Below, piece by piece: positions 46,497 to 59,051 of a stretch of 64,000 nucleotides of DNA. Each line of letters begins with the position of its first letter. The stretch's first letter is position 1. A program made the translations under genes and the position numbers. Origin of the DNA: a virus (Duplodnaviria; Heunggongvirae; Uroviricota; Caudoviricetes); IMG/VR virus record IMGVR_UViG_2671180676_000004, positions 2,122-66,121 of that record; one strand, written 5' to 3'. The notes beneath the pieces were generated by a model. It was given only the letters and a program-made list of their open reading frames with translations. It had not been told where the DNA came from and made no database searches.

Positions 46497-49400
46497 TTGA
46501 ACATGGAACAGTTCAAGAAGAAAAAGCTACCGCTGTTTATTGCCGGTGCGGGTGGTAAAAAAAGCAGCAAAAGCTCCAGCCGTACACCGGTTGAAGCCGA
46601 CGATACCGTAAATTCTCGTGCAATGGCCGCTATCCTCGATCTTCTTGGGGAAGGGGTAATTGGCGGCTTAGTAAATGGCGCAAGATCTATTTTTATCGAC
46701 GATCTGCCGATTGTAAATGAAGACGGTTCCTCCAACTTCAGCGGAATCACATGGGATTTTCGCGACGGTTCACAAGACCAGACTCCAATGTCTGGCTTTG
46801 ATTTCGTTGAAACGCCTAAATCCGTCAATATCCAGTTAAAAAAAACACATTATGTAACGGTTTCAATCGATAACGATGAAGCTGATCGGGTTCGTGTCAT
46901 CATGAAGTTTCCTTCTTTGCGAAGCATAGATAAAAAAACTGGTGACACGAACGGTACGACTGTTGAGTACAAGTTCCAGATAGCAAATGGCGACTCAACA
47001 TTTGTAGATGTGGTCGCGGAAGGTGAAAAAAGCGTTGGCATTAAGCTAACAGCAAAGAAGACCGGCGTTTATTACCGTAGCTACGAGCTGAAGCTGCCTA
47101 AGCCTGGACGCGCATACAAGGTTCGTGTAGTCCGTATTACCGATGATAACAGTAGCCAGTATCTCTATAACGATACATGGGTGGATTCAATCGGGGAAAT
47201 TGTCGATACACCGATGAACTATCCAAACTCTGTTTTGGTTGGATTGAAGGTAAACTCTGAGCAATTCGGCAGCACCATGCCATCTCGCTCTTATCTGGTG
47301 CGTGGCCTAAAAATTCGAGTACCTTCAAACTATAACGAGTCCAGTAACACTTACGCTGGGGTATGGGATGGTACTTTTAAGCTGTTGTCTTCTTCGAACC
47401 CCGCGTGGATTCTCTTTGATTTGCTGACCAATGCTCGATATGGCCTTGGTCAGTATGTGTCGGAATCTATGATTGACCTTGGCCAGTTGTACCAGATTGG
47501 TCGATATTGTGACGAAGAGGTCGATGATGGCTTTGGTGGCAAAGAGAAACGCTTTGCAATCAATACGCAGATCACCAGTCGACAGGACGCATACCGGCTA
47601 ATTCAGGATATTGCTGGAGCATTCCGCGGCATGGTGTTTTGGGCTGGTGGGATGGTTAACATCATGCAGGATAGCCCATCAGATCCGGTAATGATGTTTA
47701 CCAACTCCAACGTCAAAGATGGATTGTTTACCTATAAAGGTTCTGCGCGTAAAGATCGCCCATCCGTTGCGCTCGTAACCTACAACAACAAGGAGGACGG
47801 TTATAAGCAAAACATCGAGTACGTCGAAGATCAGGACGCAATGCGCCGTTATGGTGAGCGTAAAACAGAAGTCGTAGCATTTGGCTGTACAAGCCGAGGG
47901 CAGGCTCACCGAGTTGGTTTGTGGCTTTTATATACCGCCAGAATGGAGTCGGATGTAATTACATTTACTGCCGGCTTAGACGCGTCATTTCTGATGCCTG
48001 GTGAAACCGTTCTGATTCAGAACAAATATCGCGCAGGCAAACGTAACTCAGGTCGAATTGTGGCGTTTACCAAAAACAGCGTCACACTCGATGCGCCTGT
48101 GTCGTTAGCCAAAGGCGGCTGCTTTATTCGAATACTGAATAAGGAAGGCAAAATCGTTGAACGCGATGTTCTTGAAACTGGCGAAAATATAACAAAAGTT
48201 ACGTTTTCAAAAGCCCTGTCTTCGGCTGAAACGCCTGTTTTGAACGGCGTCTGGACTATTACAGAACCAGACCTCGAACCTATGCGCGTTCGCATCGTTA
48301 ACATCGCGCAGGGGGAAACGCCGGGTAGCTTTGACATCACCGCTGTTGAGAACAATCCGTCTAAATATGAGGCGATCGACAATGGTGCAACGCTTATCCC
48401 TCAAAATACGACGGTATTGGACCCGACTTACTCCAAGCCGTCTAATTTGCAAATCACCGAAGGGACTTATCTCTCAAGCCCTGGCAACCTGTCAGTAAAA
48501 CTGACTGCAACATGGGAAGGGAAATCTCCAGAGTATTGGATCAGTTGGCGACGTTCTGATGAAAACAATGTATCGAACTGGCAATCGGCGCGTGTAACCG
48601 AAGAGCAATACGAAATCGTTAATGTTGCGGAGAATGGACGCTACGACTTCCAGCTGTATGCGGTTTCATTCAACGGTAAAAAAACAGAGATTATCAGTAC
48701 CGTTTATCAGGTGCTGGGCACAATGACACCGCCAGATGCCCCAACGTCATTAACGGCCGTTGGAGACTATCGTAATGTGATACTGAATTGGGTTAATCCA
48801 GATTCGGTAGACCTTGATCACATTAATGTTTACGCATCCCAGACCAACAATCTGGATACGGCGAAACTGATCGCAGAGTCTGCAAGCACCACCTTTACAC
48901 ATGCTGGTCTTGGGGATAGCGAAACGTGGTATTACTGGGTTCGAGCATCGAACAAGCGAGGTATGTTAAGTCCTCCGAACTCAAACTTGGGTACAGAGGC
49001 GACAACTCGCGATGTACTGTCGTTCCTGACTGGCAAAATTACATCTTCCGAGCTTGGTCAGGCTCTGCTTGAGGACATCAACAGCAAAGTCTCTCAAGAA
49101 GCAGTTGACGAGTTAAATGAGCATATCAACCAGAGCGTCGAATCTTTGGAGGGGTCGGTAAACGACGTTAAGGAAGATATAGCTGAATTAGATAAGCAGT
49201 TCAGCGATAACCTCGCGGATTTTGAAATAAAATTCAACGAGCGTAGCGATGCTTTGGAGAACGCACAAACCGAGCTTAAAGGTGAGGTTTCGGCAACGAT
49301 CGACAAGGTCAATGAAGCGTTTGAAAAAATTGATGCTACTGATGCTGCAATTGTTGAAATCGAAAACACCGTATCTGAACACGATAAAGCTCTCGCTAAT

Positions 49401-51230
49401 ACAGTCGAGGCAATAAAGGCTGCAAGAGATGAAGCGGCGGCTCTTATTGCTAAGGAAAGCGAGGCTCGTGTTGAAGGCGATGCTGCAAACGCTAAACAAT
49501 TGGAAGTGTTGCAGTCAACGGTAGAGGAAAGCTCCGCTGCCGTTGAAGAAATGAAAAAGACGGTTGCAGAGGTCGATCGTGCAAGTGCAGAACTGACTAC
49601 GAACATTGAGGCTTTGGCCAAAACAAATATTGACCTGGCTCTTCGTCAAGATGAAGACCAGCACAAGCAGATGGTCAATAACGCGAAGATCGCAACAACA
49701 CAGAAAACCTTTGCTGATGATATGTCTGCAATGGCCACGAAGGTTGAGGAAATTCGCGTAGAAATTGGCGAAGACATTAAGGCCAGTATTCTGGAAGAGT
49801 CCACCGCTCGTGCCGATGGCGATGAAGCGTTGGCAAAGCGTGTCACTCAGCTGCAATCTAAGTTTGAAGGAGATATCAGCGCGGCGATTAGTACAGAGCA
49901 GGAGGCTCGTACATCTGCCGATGAAGCTCTGACGACACAGATCACTCAGCTTGAGTCGAAAGTAAGCAACGATATCGTCGCAGCTATTAAGGAAGAGCAA
50001 GAAGCCCGAGCAACGGAAGATTCGGCTCTGGCAAGCCAGATCACCCAACTTCAGGCAAAGGTTGATGATGATATTTCTGCTGCAATACGTAGTGAGCAGG
50101 AGGCCCGAGCAAGCGGGGACTCTGCGTTAGCCAAACAAATAAACCAGCTTCAGTCAAAGGTTGACGGTGATATATCCGCGGCCATCACTCAGGAGCAGGA
50201 GGCCAGAGCAAGTGCTGACCAGGCGCTCTCACGAGAAATTAACAGCCTGCGAGCACAAACCGGAACTGATATTGCCGCAGCGGTTGCTGTAGAGACAAAA
50301 GCAAGGACTGATGCCGATAGTGCATTGTCTACCCAGATTACGTCTCTTACAGCAAAAGCTAATGATCTCGAGGCGTCTCTTGCCAGAGAAACAACGGCTC
50401 GTGCAGATGGTGATACCGCTTTAACAAAAGAGGTTTCAAGTTTAAAAGCACAGACAGCGAAAGATATTAGTGCGGCCGTTGCAGTTGAAACGCAGGCTCG
50501 AACTGATGCTGACTCGGCGTTGTCGTCTCAGATCACCAAGCTGACCTCTCAATACAAAGAGGATATTAAAGCGGCTGTAGCAACCGAAACGAAAACGCGT
50601 ACAGAGCAAGATGCTGCATTGGCGACTCAAATCACAAACTTAGAGTCTCAAACGGCAGCCAACATTTCCGCGGCGGTCACAACTGAAACGACAGCGAGAA
50701 CGCAGGCAGATAATGCTCTGAGTGGGCGAATCGATACTCTGAAAGCAGAGGTGAATGGAAATACCGCGACAATTCAACAGCAGGCAACAGCTATTGCTGA
50801 TACCAACAAAAAAGTGTCAACCGCGTGGACGTTGAAAATGGAGACTTCAACGAGCGGAGGGCAGAAGTATATTGCCGGTATTGCGCTTGGTATTGACACC
50901 ACTGGGCTATCTCAGTTTTTGGTTCAGGCGGACAGGTTTGGTTTGGTCAACTCTGTTAACGGGAAGATCACAACGCCATTTGTTATCGAAAACAGTATCG
51001 CCTATATGAATGGAGCGTATATCAAGGATGGCACAATCACCAATGCAAAAGTAGGCGATCTGCAATCTACCAATTTTGTTAGCGGTAGATCTGGATGGCG
51101 GTTCGGCAAAAATGGAACGCTTGAGATCAACGGTAATAGCGGCGGCAATGGGCGATTGGTTATAAATGGTCAGCGGATTGACGTTTATGACGATAACAAC
51201 GTCCTACGAGTAAGAATTGGCCGTCTGTGA
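46497..51230 (+). CDS. host specificity / central tail fibre protein (gpJ-like)
   Basis: 1577 aa; position after I; internal array of about ten 33-aa repeats; C-terminal distal domain. Confidence 0.85.
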   Translation: MNMEQFKKKKLPLFIAGAGGKKSSKSSSRTPVEADDTVNSRAMAAILDLLGEGVIGGLVNGARSIFIDDLPIVNEDGSSNFSGITWDFRDGSQDQTPMSGFDFVETPKSVNIQLKKTHYVTVSIDNDEADRVRVIMKFPSLRSIDKKTGDTNGTTVEYKFQIANGDSTFVDVVAEGEKSVGIKLTAKKTGVYYRSYELKLPKPGRAYKVRVVRITDDNSSQYLYNDTWVDSIGEIVDTPMNYPNSVLVGLKVNSEQFGSTMPSRSYLVRGLKIRVPSNYNESSNTYAGVWDGTFKLLSSSNPAWILFDLLTNARYGLGQYVSESMIDLGQLYQIGRYCDEEVDDGFGGKEKRFAINTQITSRQDAYRLIQDIAGAFRGMVFWAGGMVNIMQDSPSDPVMMFTNSNVKDGLFTYKGSARKDRPSVALVTYNNKEDGYKQNIEYVEDQDAMRRYGERKTEVVAFGCTSRGQAHRVGLWLLYTARMESDVITFTAGLDASFLMPGETVLIQNKYRAGKRNSGRIVAFTKNSVTLDAPVSLAKGGCFIRILNKEGKIVERDVLETGENITKVTFSKALSSAETPVLNGVWTITEPDLEPMRVRIVNIAQGETPGSFDITAVENNPSKYEAIDNGATLIPQNTTVLDPTYSKPSNLQITEGTYLSSPGNLSVKLTATWEGKSPEYWISWRRSDENNVSNWQSARVTEEQYEIVNVAENGRYDFQLYAVSFNGKKTEIISTVYQVLGTMTPPDAPTSLTAVGDYRNVILNWVNPDSVDLDHINVYASQTNNLDTAKLIAESASTTFTHAGLGDSETWYYWVRASNKRGMLSPPNSNLGTEATTRDVLSFLTGKITSSELGQALLEDINSKVSQEAVDELNEHINQSVESLEGSVNDVKEDIAELDKQFSDNLADFEIKFNERSDALENAQTELKGEVSATIDKVNEAFEKIDATDAAIVEIENTVSEHDKALANTVEAIKAARDEAAALIAKESEARVEGDAANAKQLEVLQSTVEESSAAVEEMKKTVAEVDRASAELTTNIEALAKTNIDLALRQDEDQHKQMVNNAKIATTQKTFADDMSAMATKVEEIRVEIGEDIKASILEESTARADGDEALAKRVTQLQSKFEGDISAAISTEQEARTSADEALTTQITQLESKVSNDIVAAIKEEQEARATEDSALASQITQLQAKVDDDISAAIRSEQEARASGDSALAKQINQLQSKVDGDISAAITQEQEARASADQALSREINSLRAQTGTDIAAAVAVETKARTDADSALSTQITSLTAKANDLEASLARETTARADGDTALTKEVSSLKAQTAKDISAAVAVETQARTDADSALSSQITKLTSQYKEDIKAAVATETKTRTEQDAALATQITNLESQTAANISAAVTTETTARTQADNALSGRIDTLKAEVNGNTATIQQQATAIADTNKKVSTAWTLKMETSTSGGQKYIAGIALGIDTTGLSQFLVQADRFGLVNSVNGKITTPFVIENSIAYMNGAYIKDGTITNAKVGDLQSTNFVSGRSGWRFGKNGTLEINGNSGGNGRLVINGQRIDVYDDNNVLRVRIGRL
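49780..50750. repeat. tandem 99-bp (33-aa) coding repeats inside gpJ-like gene
   Basis: about ten units of the form E(Q/T)(E/K)AR(A/T)..D.AL..QIT.L..K...DI.AA(I/V), mostly exactly 33 aa long. Confidence 0.75.
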
Positions 51231-51323: not shown

Positions 51324-54300
51324 ATGTGGTACAGGGAAGGTACTATCACATTTACACAGGGTAGCAATACTCTGGTTGGGGCAGGGACAGCCTGGAACGT
51401 AACAGCTAATGGTGTGTTGCCGGGGATGATCGTCATTGGCCCCGACAATAAGCTGTATGAGATCAAGCGCGTAATAAGCGATACGAATATTGTTCTCTCA
51501 GAACCTTATACCGGCGAAACTCAGTCTGAGGTTCCGTGCCGAATCATTACGACCTATGAAGGCGACTTAACACAGTTTAGCGCGCGCTTTACAGCACTAA
51601 TGTCGCGTATGTCGGCTGATTCCAAGTCTATGCGCAGTTGGTTGACTGCTCTGGATGAGGTGACAATCGAGCGTGAAGACGGTACAGAAGTAACCGTTAA
51701 GCCGCTAATGCAGATCGTCAACGAGCACAACGAAAACGTTGAGTGGTATAAAAATAACACTGACGCGATTGATGCTGCTGGCGACAAAGCTCGTGAGGCG
51801 GCGGCCAGTGCTGCCGCAGCAGCAGAAAGCGCCAATACCGCTGGAGAAAAAGCCTCTCAAGCGTCTCAAAGTGCATCCGCTGCGGCATCCTCACAAAGTG
51901 CCGCAAGTGCGAGTGCAACTGCTGCGAAAAAATCTGAAACGAATGCCGCAGCGTCACAACAATCAGCAGCCACTTCTGCATCCACCGCGACCACGAAAGC
52001 GTCAGAAGCTGCCACCTCAGCCCGGGATGCGGCGGCCTCAAAAGAGGCAGCGAAATCATCAGAAACGAGCGCAGCCTCGAGCGCCAGTAATGCCGCTTCC
52101 TCGGCAACGGCGGCAGGAAATTCCGCGAAGGCGGCAAAAACGTCCGAGACGAACGCCAGGTCTTCTGAAACGGCAGCGGGACAGAGCGCCTCGGCTGCGG
52201 CAGGCTCAAAAACAGCGGCTGCGTCGTCTGCCAGTGCCGCGTCAACAAGTGCCGGGCAGGCCTCAGCCAGTGCCACCGCCGCCGGAAAATCGGCAGAAAG
52301 TGCCGCATCGTCTGCTTCAACAGCCACAACGAAGGCTGGCGAAGCCACTGAACAGGCCAGCGCAGCAGCGAGGTCTGCTTCCGCAGCGAAGACATCCGAA
52401 ACGAACGCGAAAGCGTCGGAAACCCGTGCAGAATCCTCAAAAACGGCAGCCGCATCGTCCGCCAGTTCGGCAGCGTCATCGGCATCATCGGCGTCTGCTT
52501 CAAAAGATGAGGCGACCAGACAAGCGTCCGCAGCGAAGGGCAGCGCCACGACAGCATCCACGAAAGCAACAGAGGCGGCAGGCAGTGCGACGGCAGCATC
52601 TCAGAGCAAAACTGCTGCTGAATCCGCTGCGACCCGTGCGGAAGCTGCTGCTGATCGTGCTGAAGAGATTGCCGGTGCAGTTGCGATGGAAGATGCAAGC
52701 CTTACCACCAAAGGTGTTGTGAAACTTAGCAGTGCTGTCGACAGCACCAGTGAATCTTTAGCCGCGACACCAAAAGCAGTTAAGACCGCATATGATAATG
52801 CTGAAAAACGACTACAGAAGGATCAGAATGGTGCTGATATCCCCGACAAGGGCCGCTTCCTGAATAACATTAATGTTTACAGCAAAGGTGAAGTGGATCA
52901 GAAAAAGGGGATGCGATACGTTGTGGTCAATGCCCCGGCGGGTGTCCAGGAAGGTAAATATTATCCGTTAGTGATAAAAAGGAATGACAGCCATCGGGCA
53001 TCCCGCGTTGTCATTTCAACGCCAAGTCGCACAGCTAATCACAGAATGAATAACTGTGAGTTTAATGGTTTTGTTTGCGCAGGCGGCTGGACGGACCGGG
53101 GTAGCTATGCCTGTGGTATGTTCTGGGCTTATTCATCATCGGAACGCGCTATTCATTCCATTCTGATGAGTAATAAAGGCGATACCGTAGACAGCGTATT
53201 CTATATAGAAGGTGGGGCATTTCCCGTAGAGGTCTTTTTAGAAGAAGGACTTTCTGTTACTGCTCCTGCTTCTGATTATGTTGTTGCTGAAACGACTTAT
53301 AAATTTGGCGCAACTGATCCTTATTCTGAATCAGTTGCGGTAAATTTAATTTTAGATTTTAAACAAGGTAATGGATTTTATAGTTCGTATCCTGTTTTGA
53401 GTAAGTCAGACATTAGCGGTAATAAGGTTTACGCTAATGATGAAGTTATTGTCCGTAGTCAGAATGCGTTAAGGATGATTGCTGGCGATTACGGTGTCAT
53501 ATGGCGAAATGATGGAGCAAATACTTACTTGCTCATGACTGATAAAGGCGACCAGTACGGTGGCTGGAACGGTCTTCGACCATTTGCAGTAAATAACGCA
53601 ACAGGTGAAGTGACGATCAATACACCACTTAATTCTCCAAAAGGGGTTAAGGGGAACTCTGATACAGCTACGAAACTTCAGACTGCAAGAAAAATATCCG
53701 GTGTTCCATTTGATGGCTCTACTGATATCACTTTAACCGCCGCGCATGTTGCCGCTTTCGCAAGAAGAGCAACAGGGTCATATGCTGATGCTGATGGCGG
53801 CGTGCCGTGGAATGCTGAATCTGGTGCTTATAATGTAACTAGAACGGGCGACAGTTATATTCTTGCCAACTTTTATACTGGTGTAGGTAGTTGCCGTACG
53901 CTTCAAATTAAGGCTCACTATAAAAATGGTGGGTTGTTTTATCGTTCATCTCGCGATGGAAGTGGTTTTGAAAGTGGTTGGGAGCAGGTTTACACGACTG
54001 GATTTAGACCTCAGCCGGCTGATATAAACGCACCAACCGCTGCCGCCGGATGGTTAAATAGTGGTAACGGAACAGCATTTACGACTGCTCAGTTTATAAC
54101 GTGGCTAAATAATCAGGGTGCATTTTCAAACAAATATTGGATTGCACGGTGCTCATGGACTTACGCCAACAATAATTATATAGACGACACTGGATGTGGC
54201 AGGATCGATCTATCTGGTTCCGTGATTGAGGTGTTTAGTAATAAGTCAACAAGCCACTACACTATTCGTGTTACAACGACAACAACATCGGGCCATGGTG

Positions 54301-55613
54301 GTGTTAATAATGCGGAGTTTATTTATGTGTACAATGGCAGTGATTACTCGCCAGGCTGGCGTCGTTCTTATAATACTAGAAACAAACCAACAGCTTCTGA
54401 TGTAGGAGCATTATCGCTTTCTGGAGGAGCGTTAACTGGCGGATTAACTGCTGCTGGCGAGATTATTTCAAAATCGGCGAATGGTCTGCGCATTGCCTAC
54501 GGAAACTACGGATTCTTTATCCGAAACGATGGTTCAAGCACATACTTCATGTTGACCGATTCGGGTAACAGCCTGGGAACCTATAATAGTTTAAGGCCGC
54601 TTATCATTAACAATGCCAATGGTGCTGTTAGGATCGGTAATGGACTCAATGTTACTGGCGGCATCAATGGTAGTTTGGACGGTAATGCTTCAACAGCTAC
54701 GAAGTTGCAAACAGCGAGAAACATCAATGGTGTTAAGTTTGATGGTTCAGGCGATATCAATATTAATACATTGGTATCTCGTGGCCGAGTTACGGCGTTA
54801 AGCGGCTCTACTCAAGGCACTGCTGGCATTCAAATGTATGAGGCGTACAACAATAGCTACCCGACCATGTATGGCAACGTATTGCACATGAAAGGTGCGA
54901 GTGCTGCTGGTGAGGGAGAGTTGCTTATTGGCTGGAGTGGTACGAGCGGTGCACATGCGCCAGTTTTCATTCGCTCACGAAGAGATAACACAGGTGCGGC
55001 ATGGTCAGCGTGGGCGCAGGTATATACCGCTAAGGATTCAATCCCTGGTGTGAATACAACTGGTAATCAGAACACTACTGGTAATGCCGCAACCGCCACA
55101 AAATTGCAGACAGCAAGGAAAATTGCTGGTGTGGCATTTGATGGCTCTGCCGATATAACTTTGACTGCGGCTAACCTTAATGCTTACACGAAAACAGAGG
55201 TAACAAACCTTCTAAGTTCCTATGTGAAGAGCAGTGCTCTTCCAAGCATGACTGTGCGAACTTCCTCTGTTTCAGGTGGGGATATGGGCATGAGCTTGTC
55301 CGCATTCATTAGCCACCTAAAATCAAATGGGGCGTTTAGCAAAAGTTATTGGATTGGCTTTGGCGATGCTATGGGATTCAATGCTGGCAGTATCAACAAT
55401 ATAACGGGATTTGGTGCTGTAGAATTAGCAGAATCTATAATCGAAGTTTTTAATCTACCTAACGGTGATTATACAATTCGTTTAACAACGTCACATAAAG
55501 CTGACTACGGTGGAGTTACAAACGCAATCCTCGTTTATCACTACCGTAGTAATAGAAGTCCGTCAGGTCAATGGCTGAAATTTGCAGGTACTGTTGGGGC
55601 AACAAGTAACTGA
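51324..55613 (+). CDS. side tail fibre protein
   Basis: 1429 aa; 300-aa Ala/Ser-rich low-complexity region; three copies of ATKLQTARxIxGVxFDGSxDI motif in C-terminal half. Confidence 0.8.
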   Translation: MWYREGTITFTQGSNTLVGAGTAWNVTANGVLPGMIVIGPDNKLYEIKRVISDTNIVLSEPYTGETQSEVPCRIITTYEGDLTQFSARFTALMSRMSADSKSMRSWLTALDEVTIEREDGTEVTVKPLMQIVNEHNENVEWYKNNTDAIDAAGDKAREAAASAAAAAESANTAGEKASQASQSASAAASSQSAASASATAAKKSETNAAASQQSAATSASTATTKASEAATSARDAAASKEAAKSSETSAASSASNAASSATAAGNSAKAAKTSETNARSSETAAGQSASAAAGSKTAAASSASAASTSAGQASASATAAGKSAESAASSASTATTKAGEATEQASAAARSASAAKTSETNAKASETRAESSKTAAASSASSAASSASSASASKDEATRQASAAKGSATTASTKATEAAGSATAASQSKTAAESAATRAEAAADRAEEIAGAVAMEDASLTTKGVVKLSSAVDSTSESLAATPKAVKTAYDNAEKRLQKDQNGADIPDKGRFLNNINVYSKGEVDQKKGMRYVVVNAPAGVQEGKYYPLVIKRNDSHRASRVVISTPSRTANHRMNNCEFNGFVCAGGWTDRGSYACGMFWAYSSSERAIHSILMSNKGDTVDSVFYIEGGAFPVEVFLEEGLSVTAPASDYVVAETTYKFGATDPYSESVAVNLILDFKQGNGFYSSYPVLSKSDISGNKVYANDEVIVRSQNALRMIAGDYGVIWRNDGANTYLLMTDKGDQYGGWNGLRPFAVNNATGEVTINTPLNSPKGVKGNSDTATKLQTARKISGVPFDGSTDITLTAAHVAAFARRATGSYADADGGVPWNAESGAYNVTRTGDSYILANFYTGVGSCRTLQIKAHYKNGGLFYRSSRDGSGFESGWEQVYTTGFRPQPADINAPTAAAGWLNSGNGTAFTTAQFITWLNNQGAFSNKYWIARCSWTYANNNYIDDTGCGRIDLSGSVIEVFSNKSTSHYTIRVTTTTTSGHGGVNNAEFIYVYNGSDYSPGWRRSYNTRNKPTASDVGALSLSGGALTGGLTAAGEIISKSANGLRIAYGNYGFFIRNDGSSTYFMLTDSGNSLGTYNSLRPLIINNANGAVRIGNGLNVTGGINGSLDGNASTATKLQTARNINGVKFDGSGDININTLVSRGRVTALSGSTQGTAGIQMYEAYNNSYPTMYGNVLHMKGASAAGEGELLIGWSGTSGAHAPVFIRSRRDNTGAAWSAWAQVYTAKDSIPGVNTTGNQNTTGNAATATKLQTARKIAGVAFDGSADITLTAANLNAYTKTEVTNLLSSYVKSSALPSMTVRTSSVSGGDMGMSLSAFISHLKSNGAFSKSYWIGFGDAMGFNAGSINNITGFGAVELAESIIEVFNLPNGDYTIRLTTSHKADYGGVTNAILVYHYRSNRSPSGQWLKFAGTVGATSN
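51780..52700. repeat. Ala/Ser-rich low-complexity coding region of side tail fibre
   Basis: recurrent KTSETNA / SASAAA units; generates spurious long ORFs in other frames and on the opposite strand. Confidence 0.7.
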
Positions 55614-55803
55614 TTTAGACATTATTTATATGGCTGTGAGGTTTAAAATGCGATCTCACAGCCGCAATCATAGGGATATATTAGTGAGTTACTAGATACG
55701 AATTTGAACAGCCGTTAAACGGTATATACATAGATAGGTAAGTATATACCTATAATTGAAAGGAGAAGTGTGATATAAATCCGCCATCCCGATTTGACTT
55801 TTC

Positions 55804-56139
55804 ATGGAGGAAAACATGTCGAACGAGATGGCGGGCGTTACAACAGAGCAAGTTGAGCGTATAGCCGCGATCGTTGCTCGGGAGGTTGTTGGCAAATTAG
55901 GTAAAGAGCTACGTGAAGAAATTGGCCAGGAGGTCAATGATCAGCTGAAAACCTACTTTGGTGATATGACCCCGGCGCAACATAGTATTCAACACTCCAA
56001 TCTGGACAAACTCCTTAACCGGTTAGATTCCATCTCAAGTGGGTTCTTTGGCGGCATTGTTTCTAAAATAACGTCGTTCATTATTACCGCACTGCTTTTG
56101 GGGTTAGCCGCGTATGGCGTAAAAAGTGGACTGCAATAA
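55804..56139 (+). CDS. membrane protein, holin candidate
   Basis: 111 aa with single C-terminal transmembrane helix; first gene of lysis-type cassette. Confidence 0.3.
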   Translation: MEENMSNEMAGVTTEQVERIAAIVAREVVGKLGKELREEIGQEVNDQLKTYFGDMTPAQHSIQHSNLDKLLNRLDSISSGFFGGIVSKITSFIITALLLGLAAYGVKSGLQ

Positions 56140-56152
56140 CAGGAGATCAAGG

Positions 56153-56845
56153 ATGAAGACTCCGAGAGGCATTCGTAATAATAACCCCGGTAATCTTGAT
56201 AAAGGATCACCGTGGCAAGGTCTGGTTGCGAATCCAGACGAACCGCGCTTTTGCACGTTTAAAGACCCTGTTTGGGGGATTCGTGCGCTGGCGGTGACTC
56301 TAATTACCTACCACGATAAACGTCGCGCAAAAGACGGCACAAGTATCGATACCATTCGTGAAGTTATTGAACGCTGGGCACCGCCGAATGAAAACAATAC
56401 TGACGCCTACATTAATGAGGTGTCTAAAGCCGTTGGTGTAACCGCAGACATGATCATCGATCTGCATGATTACGACATCCTTCGACCTTTGGTTGAGGCA
56501 ATCATTCGCCACGAGAATGGCCGAGGCCCGCTAAAAACGCTGAACACCTGGTATGCGGCAGAAGTTATTGAGGAAGGTCTGCGTCGAGCTGGCGTTGTTA
56601 AGCCGGTGAAAACCGTGAAGGCTGTTCCTGTAACTAAAGAAACCGCAGGCGCAACTGTTACAGCAGGTATTGGTCTGGCGCAGCTGGCCGATGTTATGCC
56701 GCAGGTTTCCGCTGCTATGGATAAAGCACAAGGTCATATCTCTAGCGGGGATACAGTACGCATCATCTTCGGTATTGCCACTATTGTTGTGGCAGGATTC
56801 ATTGCCTGGTCGCAGGTAAGAAAACATCAGAAAGGGATGGTCTAA
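56153..56845 (+). CDS. putative endolysin / cell-wall-active protein with C-terminal membrane anchor
   Basis: ATG 56153 with AGGAG upstream; conserved-looking N-terminal motif GIRNNNPGNL; C-terminal hydrophobic helix; sits between holin candidate and spanins. Confidence 0.35.
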   Translation: MKTPRGIRNNNPGNLDKGSPWQGLVANPDEPRFCTFKDPVWGIRALAVTLITYHDKRRAKDGTSIDTIREVIERWAPPNENNTDAYINEVSKAVGVTADMIIDLHDYDILRPLVEAIIRHENGRGPLKTLNTWYAAEVIEEGLRRAGVVKPVKTVKAVPVTKETAGATVTAGIGLAQLADVMPQVSAAMDKAQGHISSGDTVRIIFGIATIVVAGFIAWSQVRKHQKGMV

Positions 56846-56846
56846 T

Positions 56847-57098
56847 ATGCTAGGCAGCCTGATGACAAAGCTAAAAGTTGCTTTGATTACGCTGGCTGCC
56901 GTTCTTTTCGTTCTTGTCGGCGCTTACACGATGGGCGGGAATGCGGCGCGACGAGCAATGGAAGAGAAGGCAAAACAGGAAGACAGAAAACGACTTCAAA
57001 GCACAGTGGAAGTGGTGAATGAGACGAGCAATAAAATACGTCAGAAAGATGCTTCTGCCGTTCATCGTGAGTTGTATGATAAGTGGGTGCGTCATTAA
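56847..57098 (+). CDS. i-spanin (Rz-like)
   Basis: 83 aa, N-terminal transmembrane helix then charged helical region; overlaps lipoprotein gene in another frame. Confidence 0.5.
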   Translation: MLGSLMTKLKVALITLAAVLFVLVGAYTMGGNAARRAMEEKAKQEDRKRLQSTVEVVNETSNKIRQKDASAVHRELYDKWVRH

Positions 57099-57234
57099 AC
57101 CACAAACCGCCAGCGTATTGTTCTGCGATGGAGCTGGGCCTATCTATATCAGCAATAATGATGTGATGACCGAAGAAACCGAACGCCAAATCCTTTTTCA
57201 CAATACGATGGGAGAGAGAGTTTGCGGTTGGTGA
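57019..57234 (+). CDS. o-spanin (Rz1-like lipoprotein)
   Basis: 71 aa in a different frame overlapping Rz-like gene; signal peptide with lipobox ISGC. Confidence 0.5.
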   Translation: MRRAIKYVRKMLLPFIVSCMISGCVIKPQTASVLFCDGAGPIYISNNDVMTEETERQILFHNTMGERVCGW

Positions 57235-57265: not shown

Positions 57266-57787
57266 TTATTCTTCGAACAATTTTTCGATAGATTTTGTAG
57301 GATAGAACAAAGAACGCTCGTTGTTACCAACCAGCTGGATAAAGCCTAAACTTTTATAAAACGCCTTGGCTTTGTCATTTAACGCCTCAACGAAAAGTCC
57401 ATGAATGCCTACAGCAAGAGATGCATTGTACACAACGCGCATTGCATGTGTTACAAGCATTGAGCCAAATCCTTGACCTTGAAGGGACTTGTCCAAAGCC
57501 AGCCTACCCAAAGTAACACTTGGAACATTCCGATAAGGTACCTTCTTTTGCTGGCTTCTTGAAGGTAAGGACTCCTTTTCAAAGCAGCTGCCTGACAAAG
57601 TGTAATACCCTAACACTTTTGGTCTGTCTTCTTTCGTGAAAAGCACATAAGCGCGAAGAATTTTTCCCTCATGCTGCCTTTTTAAGTGGTTGGTTAAAAA
57701 GGCATTTAGTGATTCTTCACCGCAATCAAAACCATTCAAATCATAATCTTTCTCTCCAGAGAAAATTTCTATCTTTATATTATCCAC
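57266..57787 (-). CDS. GNAT-family toxin (TacT/AtaT-type aminoacyl-tRNA acetyltransferase)
   Basis: 173 aa; GNAT motif QGQGFGSMLV; immediately downstream of DUF1778-type antitoxin gene. Confidence 0.75.
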   Translation of the reverse strand: MDNIKIEIFSGEKDYDLNGFDCGEESLNAFLTNHLKRQHEGKILRAYVLFTKEDRPKVLGYYTLSGSCFEKESLPSRSQQKKVPYRNVPSVTLGRLALDKSLQGQGFGSMLVTHAMRVVYNASLAVGIHGLFVEALNDKAKAFYKSLGFIQLVGNNERSLFYPTKSIEKLFEE

Positions 57788-57794
57788 GAGTAAA

Positions 57795-58103
57795 CTACTC
57801 CATGCTTTTCAGACGATCAGCAGCTCGTTTCAGCTTGTCGTTCGGTGCCGGAGGATTGCTTATAGCGTCCATAACCAGATTCCAGGATTCTTCATTCAGA
57901 ACTAGTCTACGGTGTTGCTCTATAACTTTCACGGCACGTTCAGATGCACTGCTAACCATAAACTGAGTAATGCTCTGGTTAGACATTGCGGCAGCTTCCT
58001 CGATGATGCTTTTATCGTCATCGGTTAATCTCAAATCGATGCGCTGCTTTTTTAGTGCTGACATGTATTCCTCCTGATGGCCGTGATGTAGGAAGGCCAT
58101 CAA
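57795..58103 (-). CDS. DUF1778-type (TacA-like) antitoxin
   Basis: About 90-100 aa (real start may be internal ATG at 58064); RHH-like N-terminus KKQRIDLRLTDDDK; classic partner of GNAT toxins. Confidence 0.7.
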   Translation of the reverse strand: MMAFLHHGHQEEYMSALKKQRIDLRLTDDDKSIIEEAAAMSNQSITQFMVSSASERAVKVIEQHRRLVLNEESWNLVMDAISNPPAPNDKLKRAADRLKSME

Positions 58104-58382: not shown

Positions 58383-59051
58383 ATGACCAAGATCTTTGTG
58401 GTTGGCGGCACAAAGGGCGGGCCTGGCAAATCCACCGTTGCCCAGCAAATTGCCGTTTGCCTGAAAGTCAAAAAGAAGAAGAAGGTTTATATTACCGATA
58501 TAGATATTCAGCGCACGACAACGAGCTGGTGTGAAGACCGTCGACAGAACGAAGACCTTGAGCTGATTCCTTTTGCATACGTTCAGGATGACATCATTAA
58601 GCACCTAAAATCGCTTCAGGGTAGAGCTGAGTTTGTAGTGGTAGATGCTGGTGGCTTCGACTCCGAAATTCAGCGACAAGCGATGCTGATGGCTGACGTT
58701 ATCATTATCCCGCTGCGTCCTAAGCGTCGTGATTTGAAATCTTTACGTGACATCGATCCTATTATCGACAATGTTCGCAATGTAAACGATAAAGTGAAGG
58801 TCCGCGCGGTCATGAACCAGTGCCCGGCTTTGCCATCACAAGTGTCTCGCATTCTGGCGGCTAAAGAGATTGTCGAGACGTTTGGCATCGAGTCTGCGCC
58901 AGTCAATCTATATAACCGCAACGTCTACGATGATGCGGAAGAGTCTGGTCGTTCTATCTTCGAAATGACCGGTAGCGAGCGCGACAAAAAGGCGGAAGCC
59001 GAGTTTGAAGAATTTGTAGATTATCTGTTGAGTCTGGAGGAAGAAGAATAA
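58383..59051 (+). CDS. parA: ParA-family partition ATPase (small, type Ib)
   Basis: 222 aa; deviant Walker A GGTKGGPGKST; palindrome 58334-58348 upstream. Confidence 0.8.
   Translation: MTKIFVVGGTKGGPGKSTVAQQIAVCLKVKKKKKVYITDIDIQRTTTSWCEDRRQNEDLELIPFAYVQDDIIKHLKSLQGRAEFVVVDAGGFDSEIQRQAMLMADVIIIPLRPKRRDLKSLRDIDPIIDNVRNVNDKVKVRAVMNQCPALPSQVSRILAAKEIVETFGIESAPVNLYNRNVYDDAEESGRSIFEMTGSERDKKAEAEFEEFVDYLLSLEEEE

Follow-up and report, generated by a model that had tools for sequence, protein, structure and literature searches.

Fibre gene and domain order

We analysed a window of 64,000 nucleotides (nt) from a virus of the Caudoviricetes (positions 2,122 to 66,121 of IMG/VR record IMGVR_UViG_2671180676_000004) and found that positions 51324-55613 on the plus strand hold one uninterrupted open reading frame (ORF) of 1429 amino acids (aa) plus stop. 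It lies directly after a gpJ homologue (1577 aa, 46497-51230; Pfam PF09327, PF13550 and PF24801), with 93 nt between the gpJ stop and its own start at 51324, as in a lambda Stf-type locus, and the virion gene order of the element is lambda-like. A 6-kb stretch around the gene was 100% identical to the E. coli plasmid NZ_CP157149.1 (111 kb) and 97-99.8% identical to four further plasmids of ~108-110 kb. In phage Cyrano, where the order is M, L, K, I, J, fibre, holin, endolysin, Rz, Rz1, KacT toxin, antitoxin and ParA, the homologue directly after J is annotated as a tail fibre. The protein itself matched PHROG tail-fibre families and fibre Pfam families, and in the annotation of relatives no other gene of the tail module bears a fibre name. 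Because of the plasmid identity, the match of the fibre N-terminus to SSU5 and the Cyrano gene order, the window can be assigned to an SSU5-like E. coli phage-plasmid, and 51324-55613 to its intact side tail fibre gene. A preliminary description made from the sequence had already named a side tail fibre here, which the adjoining gpJ, the N-terminus common with SSU5 and the family matches bear out. It had placed the gene at 51780-55613; the end and the strand stand and the start does not, position 51780 being exactly aa 153, the first residue of an Ala-rich tract. The gene and its parts are as follows.

51324-55613, plus: complete side tail fibre gene (ORF list, plasmid NZ_CP157149.1, Cyrano, PHROG)
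51324-51758, plus: N-terminal anchor region specific to the SSU5 group, aa 1-145 (SSU5 match, sibling identity)
51780-52679, plus: Ala/Ser/Thr-rich, heptad-periodic rod, aa 153-452 (composition, Fourier analysis)
52698-52820, plus: Phage_fiber_2 repeat, aa 459-499 (PF03406, E = 7e-20)
52902-53375, plus: Z domain, predicted beta-sandwich, aa ~527-684 (AlphaFold2 model)
53397-53663, plus: X1, beta-prism/beta-helix domain like P4 of T4 gp34, aa 692-780 (PF21446 Gp34_trimer, E = 2e-31, envelope aa 652-755)
53649-53741, plus: ATKLQTAR module 1, aa 776-806 (motif search, alignment)
53754-54047, plus: Y1, gp37_C-like domain, aa 811-908 (PF12604, E = 4e-7, above the cut-off)
54024-54401, plus: T1, internal knob of the Mu S' type with two cysteines, aa 901-1026 (PDB 8JU3 residues 202-326, E = 5.7e-35)
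54402-54677, plus: X2, second gp34 P4-like domain, aa 1027-1118 (PF21446, PDB matches)
54678-54770, plus: ATKLQTAR module 2, aa 1119-1149 (motif search, alignment)
54771-55028, plus: Y2, Y-like domain, aa 1150-1235 (22-aa match to the end of Y1, E = 0.002)
55041-55169, plus: ATKLQTAR module 3, long form with the lead GVNTTGNQNTTGN, aa 1240-1282 (motif search, alignment)
55170-55271, plus: neck with NLNAYTKTEV, aa 1283-1316 (always before T2 in relatives)
55272-55613, plus: T2, terminal knob and presumed receptor-binding tip, aa 1317-1429 plus stop (similarity to T1 and Mu S')

The first 515 nt of the gene were 78% identical to the tail fibre of Salmonella phage SSU5, and sibling phage-plasmids all share the N-terminal region at 97-100% identity, irrespective of the tip they carry; this part would attach the fibre to the tail tip. 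The tract that follows (aa 153-452) consists of 39% Ala, 23% Ser and 11% Thr, so the 300-aa Ala/Ser-rich composition given in the preliminary description was confirmed, and its label of low complexity was not: the Ala positions gave Fourier peaks at 3.49 and 6.98 residues, with 31 and 16 times the mean power. Because of this strong heptad periodicity, the tract is probably an Ala-cored coiled-coil rod and not a disordered region, and its length would be roughly 44 nm if fully helical. Tandem Repeats Finder found no DNA tandem repeat in it, and the tract is common to lambdoid side tail fibres at 85-92% nt identity. Three long ORFs overlap the tract:

51739-52722, plus: spurious ORF in frame +1 relative to the fibre, 327 aa, rich in R, P, L and Q (ORF list, tract composition)
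51718-52698, minus: spurious antisense ORF, 326 aa, rich in L, R, P and Q (ORF list, tract composition)
51866-52561, minus: spurious antisense ORF, 231 aa, rich in A, D and V (ORF list, tract composition)

Not one codon of the tract has T at its second position, which fits the lack of stops in the other frames; together with the skewed composition of these other-frame readings, this agrees with their earlier description as translation artefacts.

Downstream of the rod, aa 451-519 aligned to residues 105-173 of Mu S/S' with E = 2.5e-15, a junction common with the constant part of Mu S. The Phage_fiber_2 repeat within it is of a type also found in T4 gp34 and gp12, where it is an alpha/beta repeat (PMC5537660). 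For the Z domain, the AlphaFold2 model reached a predicted template modelling (TM) score of 0.73 with a core predicted local distance difference test (pLDDT) value of 60-94. Pfam has no family for this domain, and Foldseek gave no PDB hit at E<=0.001; its structural relatives (query TM scores 0.57-0.68) were predicted fibre proteins from phages JenK1, Vibrio phi 3, Aeromonas phiAS4 and navn. Its sequence family is narrow, with 39 proteins, those with an organism name all being from Escherichia, and the Pfam envelope of X1 reaches into the C-terminal end of the Z domain. The motif N(I/L)N(V/A)Y(S/T)K(G/T)EV was seen at aa 515-524 and 1290-1299 (window 52866-52895 and 55191-55220): NINVYSKGEV precedes the Z domain and the similar NLNAYTKTEV stands in the neck before T2, and globular fibre domains may commonly be introduced by this motif.

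The distal half holds paired domains. Over the whole fibre PF21446 scored 196.9 bits against a gathering cut-off of 27, in two stretches. X2 matched T4 gp34 (5NXF and 9X3R, residues 1023-1115) with E = 2e-19 and Mu S (5YVQ, residues 234-339) with E = 1.4e-29; the gp34 region concerned forms a triple beta-helix plus the P4 beta-prism in the crystal structure (PMC5537660). X1 and X2 (aa 692-780 and 1032-1120) were 43% identical with E = 3e-19, and T1 and T2 (aa 913-1010 and 1317-1413) 40% identical with E = 1e-14. Y1 aligned to residues 324-421 of Mu S' (8JU3) with E = 1.9e-19, and Y2 resembled Y1 weakly, over aa ~1214-1235 against ~871-892; a different sequence stands in the place of Y2 in Cyrano. 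The T1 domain type occurs also in the P1 Sv', P7 and D108 fibres. No family in Pfam or NCBIfam was found for T1, T2 or Y2. The preliminary description had the modules separated by non-repeated segments, whereas the intervening segments proved to be paired too, X1 with X2, T1 with T2 and, weakly, Y1 with Y2.

Comparison of the whole fibre with known systems gave E = 4.7e-71 for Mu S' (8JU3) and E = 1.2e-45 for Mu S (5YVQ). Like the S fibres of Mu (S, gp49; S', gp52), P1, P7 and D108, it has the constant part and matches for X2, T1, Y1 and T2. In Mu S', however, T comes before Y, whereas in the window fibre Y comes before T, and the S and S' pieces that are separate in Mu are joined in one polypeptide on one strand. 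Mu and P1 carry an inverted alternative tip with its own Tfa and a Gin/Cin invertase, whereas no inverted fibre fragment or named Tfa adjoins the window gene in the ORF list or the annotation of relatives, from which this was read with no scan aimed at inverted repeats or at Gin/Cin. Mu is a myovirus, whereas the virion genes of the window are lambda-like in order. With T4 gp34 (PF21446; 4UXE, 5NXF, 9X3R) the window fibre shares X1 and X2 (gp34 residues 1023-1115) and the Phage_fiber_2 repeat and nothing else; gp34 has the partners gp35, gp36 and gp37, whereas none is named for the window fibre, which is a single protein with its gp34-like domains in the distal half. The lambdoid Stf proteins of PhiR30_1, Turner and mEp332 share the position after J and the Ala/Ser rod, and nt 526-2648 of the gene (aa ~175-883) were ~89-90% identical to PhiR30_1 and Turner. 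The window fibre differs from them in its N-terminal 175 aa, which are specific to the SSU5 group, in its distal part beyond aa ~883 and in having no tfa after it.

ATKLQTAR modules and the junctions of sibling fibres

ATKLQTAR occurred exactly three times, at aa 782, 1125 and 1258 (nt 53667, 54696 and 55095), within a unit of ~31-41 aa in which 21 of about 41 positions are invariant across the copies, far beyond chance; the three conserved copies of the preliminary description are real. All three matched the repeat consensus GNAxTATKLxTARxIxGVxFDGSxNI, and relatives hold the long form of module 3 as tandem arrays of 37-42-aa units. At the DNA level, column identity among the three copies was ~74%, with exact runs of <=8 nt and conservation mainly at the invariant amino acids. 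A recent duplication was considered as the origin of the modules and rejected on these grounds. Their conservation reflects constraint on the protein.

We searched 1.84 billion proteins, each representing a 50%-identity cluster, with a profile of the three copies. The profile retrieved 14,749 representatives at E<=1e-3 and 4,108 at the stricter E<=1e-10, and a single protein held as many as 18 matching stretches. The copies in the retrieved proteins were often in tandem (2-18), with a commonest spacing of 40 aa, and close relatives of the fibre have three modules in a row. The module stands before unrelated tips, namely PF07484, PF13884, PF21882 and PF21722 (Collar, S74, gp53-like and Gly-rich). 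The copies of Pfam and NCBIfam used gave no detection of the module in the window fibre, and PF18338 BppL_N matched only variant module copies in another protein.

A profile of 45 diverse copies was then compared with the PDB, and it matched the C-terminal spike of phage L Dec (residues 92-132, E = 1.3e-9) and one module in the PhiM1 tail fibre gp47 (8VBX, residues 311-353, E = 1.8e-9). The same database searched with two of the window's own modules (86 aa) gave nothing significant (Dec, E = 0.89), and the 8VBX paper does not describe the module-bearing part of PhiM1 gp47. Dec (6E3C), whose spike is homologous to the module at the profile level, is a capsid decoration protein with one unit after an OB-fold, whereas the window fibre has three modules. 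Its spike is unfolded in monomers, forms only upon trimerisation and supplies nearly all trimer contacts (PMC11398494). Circular dichroism and AlphaFold2 favour antiparallel beta structure in the spike, and its atomic structure is unsettled between a beta-helix and an antiparallel barrel (PMC11398494). Because of the homology to this trimer-only spike, the modules are most likely trimer-locking shaft beads between globular domains.

The preliminary description had instead suggested modular receptor-binding units, and had named as its refutation that the repeats be common to all fibres of this class and the next ORF a standard fibre-assembly chaperone. Half of this holds, the module being common in such fibres and the next ORF not a chaperone, and the presence of the module in at least 14,749 proteins, in tandem arrays, before many unrelated tips and with homology to the Dec spike speaks against the suggestion. 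Receptor binding by the three modules themselves, which their conservation and repetition could favour, is therefore a very improbable reading: specificity elements are expected to vary, and these hardly differ among thousands of fibres whose tips, and presumably hosts, are unrelated, form long tandem arrays and resemble a trimerisation spike.

The siblings pAMPD1, CMS-2020a, AnCo2, NZ_CP081702.1 and Cyrano share the N-terminus, the rod and the flanking J and lysis genes, whereas those other than Cyrano end in S74 plus Gp38, in S74 plus small ORFs, or in a tip with a classical Tfa. Collinearity of the fibres ended at aa 1281 for pAMPD1, at aa 1147 for CMS-2020a and at aa 1306 for AnCo2. In 49 complete E. 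coli genomes module 3 was present at 98-99% identity and other tips followed from ~130 nt later (aa ~1301). At least 80% of the distal half (2.8 kb) is common to only 5 plasmids, and the distal ~1.3 kb (aa ~995-1429, X2 to T2) is about 86-92% identical at the nt level in many sibling plasmids. Relative to the window fibre, Cyrano has five modules, a different middle domain and the same ending T1-X2-module-Y-module-T2.

Homology blocks with relatives begin at aa 781-782 in module 1; breakpoints fall at aa 1119, 1125, 1131 and 1147 in module 2 and at aa 1240, 1266, 1274, 1279 and 1281 in module 3. Among 18 distinct homology-block ends from 60 records of relatives, 7 lay inside modules, which make up 9.9% of the length (binomial P = 1.1e-3), a statistic that is indicative only, since BLAST ends favour conserved islands and the 60 records share ancestry. 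Because they are conserved across unrelated fibres, the modules most likely act as joints for the recombinational exchange of distal cassettes.

At least three other tip cassettes occupy the fibre locus of siblings: S74 plus a T-even-type Gp38 adhesin (PF05268; pAMPD1, E = 2e-69), S74 plus ORFs of 84 and 202 aa and a lipoprotein of 77 aa, and a tip accompanied by a classical Tfa so named by PGAP. The 84-aa protein (WP_000120169.1) is common to the second and third of these, and the sibling helpers sit exactly between the fibre and the holin. In three sibling records, designated L002, L003 and L012, the cassettes are:

L002, 6706-7488: sibling tip cassette, same locus
L003, 5860-6963: sibling tip cassette, same locus
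L012, 6193-7550: sibling tip cassette, same locus

Fibres built from permutable, mobile domains have already been described, and alternative endings, S74 plus adhesin against a lectin-like head, are known on otherwise similar fibres (PMC12143355). In the phage-plasmid literature we found no discussion of fibre variation in the SSU5 group. The window gene is a further case, in which domain kits already known from Mu/P1 S fibres, T4 gp34 and lambdoid Stf stand in a new order on an SSU5-type anchor.

Terminal knob and the genes downstream of the fibre

T2 matched residues 215-304 of Mu S' with E = 1.4e-8, and it is a divergent form of the domain that Mu S', and the window fibre itself as T1, have in an internal position. 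In relatives T2 is always C-terminal, and it is presumed to be the receptor-binding tip. It was at least 90% conserved in 74 PLSDB plasmids. Of 5426 complete E. coli genomes, 77 have it, in every case on a plasmid, and a search of 50,697 phage records gave Cyrano only. One chromosomal prophage carries a copy of a T2-tipped fibre, followed by a BOF-family gene and host genes, with no Tfa.

The gene after the window fibre encodes a holin-like membrane protein and is followed by lysis genes:

55804-56139, plus: 111-aa holin-like membrane protein (PHROG 5093, one C-terminal transmembrane segment)
56126-56845, plus: endolysin (PHROG endolysin family; PDB 7Q47, E = 4e-54)
56847-57098, plus: Rz-like protein (PHROG spanin family)
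57019-57234, plus: Rz1-like protein (PHROG spanin family)

The 111-aa protein gave no Pfam hit at E<=0.01, NCBIfam matches only far below threshold and no Tfa-family hit; the function of PHROG 5093 is not annotated. In Cyrano it is annotated 'Holin', and its gene overlaps the start of the endolysin. It was identical at 111 of 111 positions in siblings with different tips. A disguised chaperone was considered for this protein and rejected because of that identity, the lack of co-variation with the tip being the reason to regard it as not Tfa-like. The ORF at 55804-56139 was thus not found to be a fibre-assembly chaperone, and the earlier observation that a membrane protein, with no chaperone gene, comes next downstream is upheld by the absence of a Tfa hit, the transmembrane segment and the invariance of the protein whatever the tip.

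The fibre was also searched for an intramolecular chaperone domain, a check that the preliminary description had proposed. PF13884 (Peptidase_S74) gave no hit on the whole fibre or on T2, and the same scan detected S74 in pAMPD1 and AnCo2. No Tfa family of Pfam or NCBIfam hit the fibre, and a Gp38 gene (PF05268) was absent after it in the ORF list and by Pfam. 'Tail fiber assembly' was not among the 122 annotated features of a plasmid 99.8% identical over the stretch from fibre to lysis genes, and no partner of the gp35, gp36, gp37 or gp38 type is named in the annotation of a near-identical plasmid. The T2-tipped fibres of Cyrano and of the chromosomal prophage are likewise without a downstream chaperone. 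The T2 tip probably needs no dedicated helper.

Other features of the neighbourhood were as follows. A perfect 9-bp inverted repeat lies at 55632-55663 (GGCTGTGAG, 14 nt, CTCACAGCC), 19 nt past the fibre stop and with no T-run, and it overlaps the sole promoter-like site of the 190 nt that separate the fibre from the lysis genes. The catalytic part of the endolysin (aa 10-160) matched PDB 7Q47; the protein looks membrane-tethered, since it ends in a hydrophobic segment (IIFGIATIVVAGFIAWSQV). After the lysis cassette, 57266-58103 (minus) encodes a GNAT-type toxin (KacT/TacT-like) with a TacA-family antitoxin, and 58383-59051 (plus), after that pair, a ParA/MipZ-type ATPase; these genes mark the change from phage genes to plasmid-maintenance genes. 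Within gpJ, at window 49700-50700, there are about ten apparently coiled-coil protein repeats of ~33 aa with the pattern DISAAIxxEQEARxxADxALxxQIxxLxxKV. The run stands before the Phage_Tail_Tip domain (Pfam stretch aa 1425-1559), and Tandem Repeats Finder found no DNA tandem repeat in this region.

Proposed architecture and alternatives

We consider it probable that the gene encodes a beads-on-a-string side fibre in which trimer-lock modules serve as exchange joints and which ends in a chaperone-free T2 tip. The fibre would be trimeric, like its solved relatives. From the SSU5-group anchor it would pass through the heptad rod of ~300 aa, one T4-type alpha/beta repeat and the beta-sandwich Z to two sets of the same domain kit, X1-module-Y1-T1 and X2-module-Y2-module-T2. 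The modules would lock the trimer as short shaft beads between the globular domains and, being conserved in unrelated fibres, would serve as joints for the exchange of distal cassettes, while T2 at the end would bind the receptor and fold without a dedicated chaperone or adhesin.

Several points weigh against this architecture. The structural roles of the fibre parts rest on homology and not on a trimer model, and an AlphaFold2 monomer model of module 3 plus T2 (mean pLDDT 49, predicted TM score 0.39) was unreliable and was left unused. The T-domain homologue is internal, not terminal, in Mu S', which bears on receptor binding by T2. Many plasmid genes are hypothetical, so that an unrecognised chaperone, or host chaperones, could assist the tip. 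As to the joints, the DNA likeness of the modules is too low for efficient homologous recombination between the window's own copies, and the breakpoint statistic carries the reservations given above.

A stronger form of the same idea, which we put forward only tentatively and with a small chance of being right, is that T2 and the preceding Dec-spike-like modules form a self-sufficient distal cassette, in which the trimer would be nucleated and registered in cis, with no Tfa, S74 or adhesin.

The alternative that survives best is that a helper is needed and is encoded away from the fibre, as a small phage-plasmid protein, or is a general chaperone of host or phage. T4 gp34 relies on the general chaperone gp57A, and the X domains here are gp34-like; the hypothetical genes of the plasmid would leave room for such a protein. 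The related Mu S and S' fibres use Tfa proteins (PMC11821841). Yet the helper or adhesin of four sibling tip types comes directly after the fibre, whereas three independent T2-tipped contexts have nothing there and no Tfa name appears among the 122 features, so we regard a distant helper as possible and rather unlikely.

It is also conceivable that T2 is not a receptor binder and is instead the site where a distal adhesin or fibre, the product of another gene, docks. In T4, the C-terminus of gp34 docks gp35, and gp37 carries Gp38. Mu S' and the window fibre both contain an internal T domain, gp34-like domains are shaft elements in T4, and sibling plasmids do use a Gp38 adhesin. Yet no gp38-, gp35- or gp36-like gene is named on the plasmid, and T2 itself is the part that other tips replace directly behind module 3, as expected of a specificity determinant, which makes the docking role quite improbable.

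A decaying or non-functional fibre, for which laboratory lambda with its frameshifted stf is a precedent and some fragmented or frameshifted database relatives (P0046) might speak, is scarcely credible here, nothing of the kind having been found in the window gene, where the 1429-aa ORF is uninterrupted, the distal ~1.3 kb is kept in many siblings and T2 is conserved in 74 plasmids and present in the deposited phage genome of Cyrano.

None of these findings overturns the current understanding of tail fibres. For annotation, the module is a very abundant fibre repeat for which a dedicated family would improve fibre annotation, and the Ala-rich tract should be neither masked nor split into ORFs. 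For phage engineering, the modules of the beads-on-a-string fibre mark natural splice points for swaps of distal cassettes, and a tip without a co-expressed chaperone would, if confirmed, be convenient. If the self-sufficient distal cassette proved true, it would be a natural chaperone-free receptor-binding tip whose ancestor was an internal domain of the shaft and which SSU5-like phage-plasmids have carried into about 1.4% of complete E. coli genomes. At the locus itself, one phage-plasmid lineage is seen to cycle through at least four tip and helper solutions.

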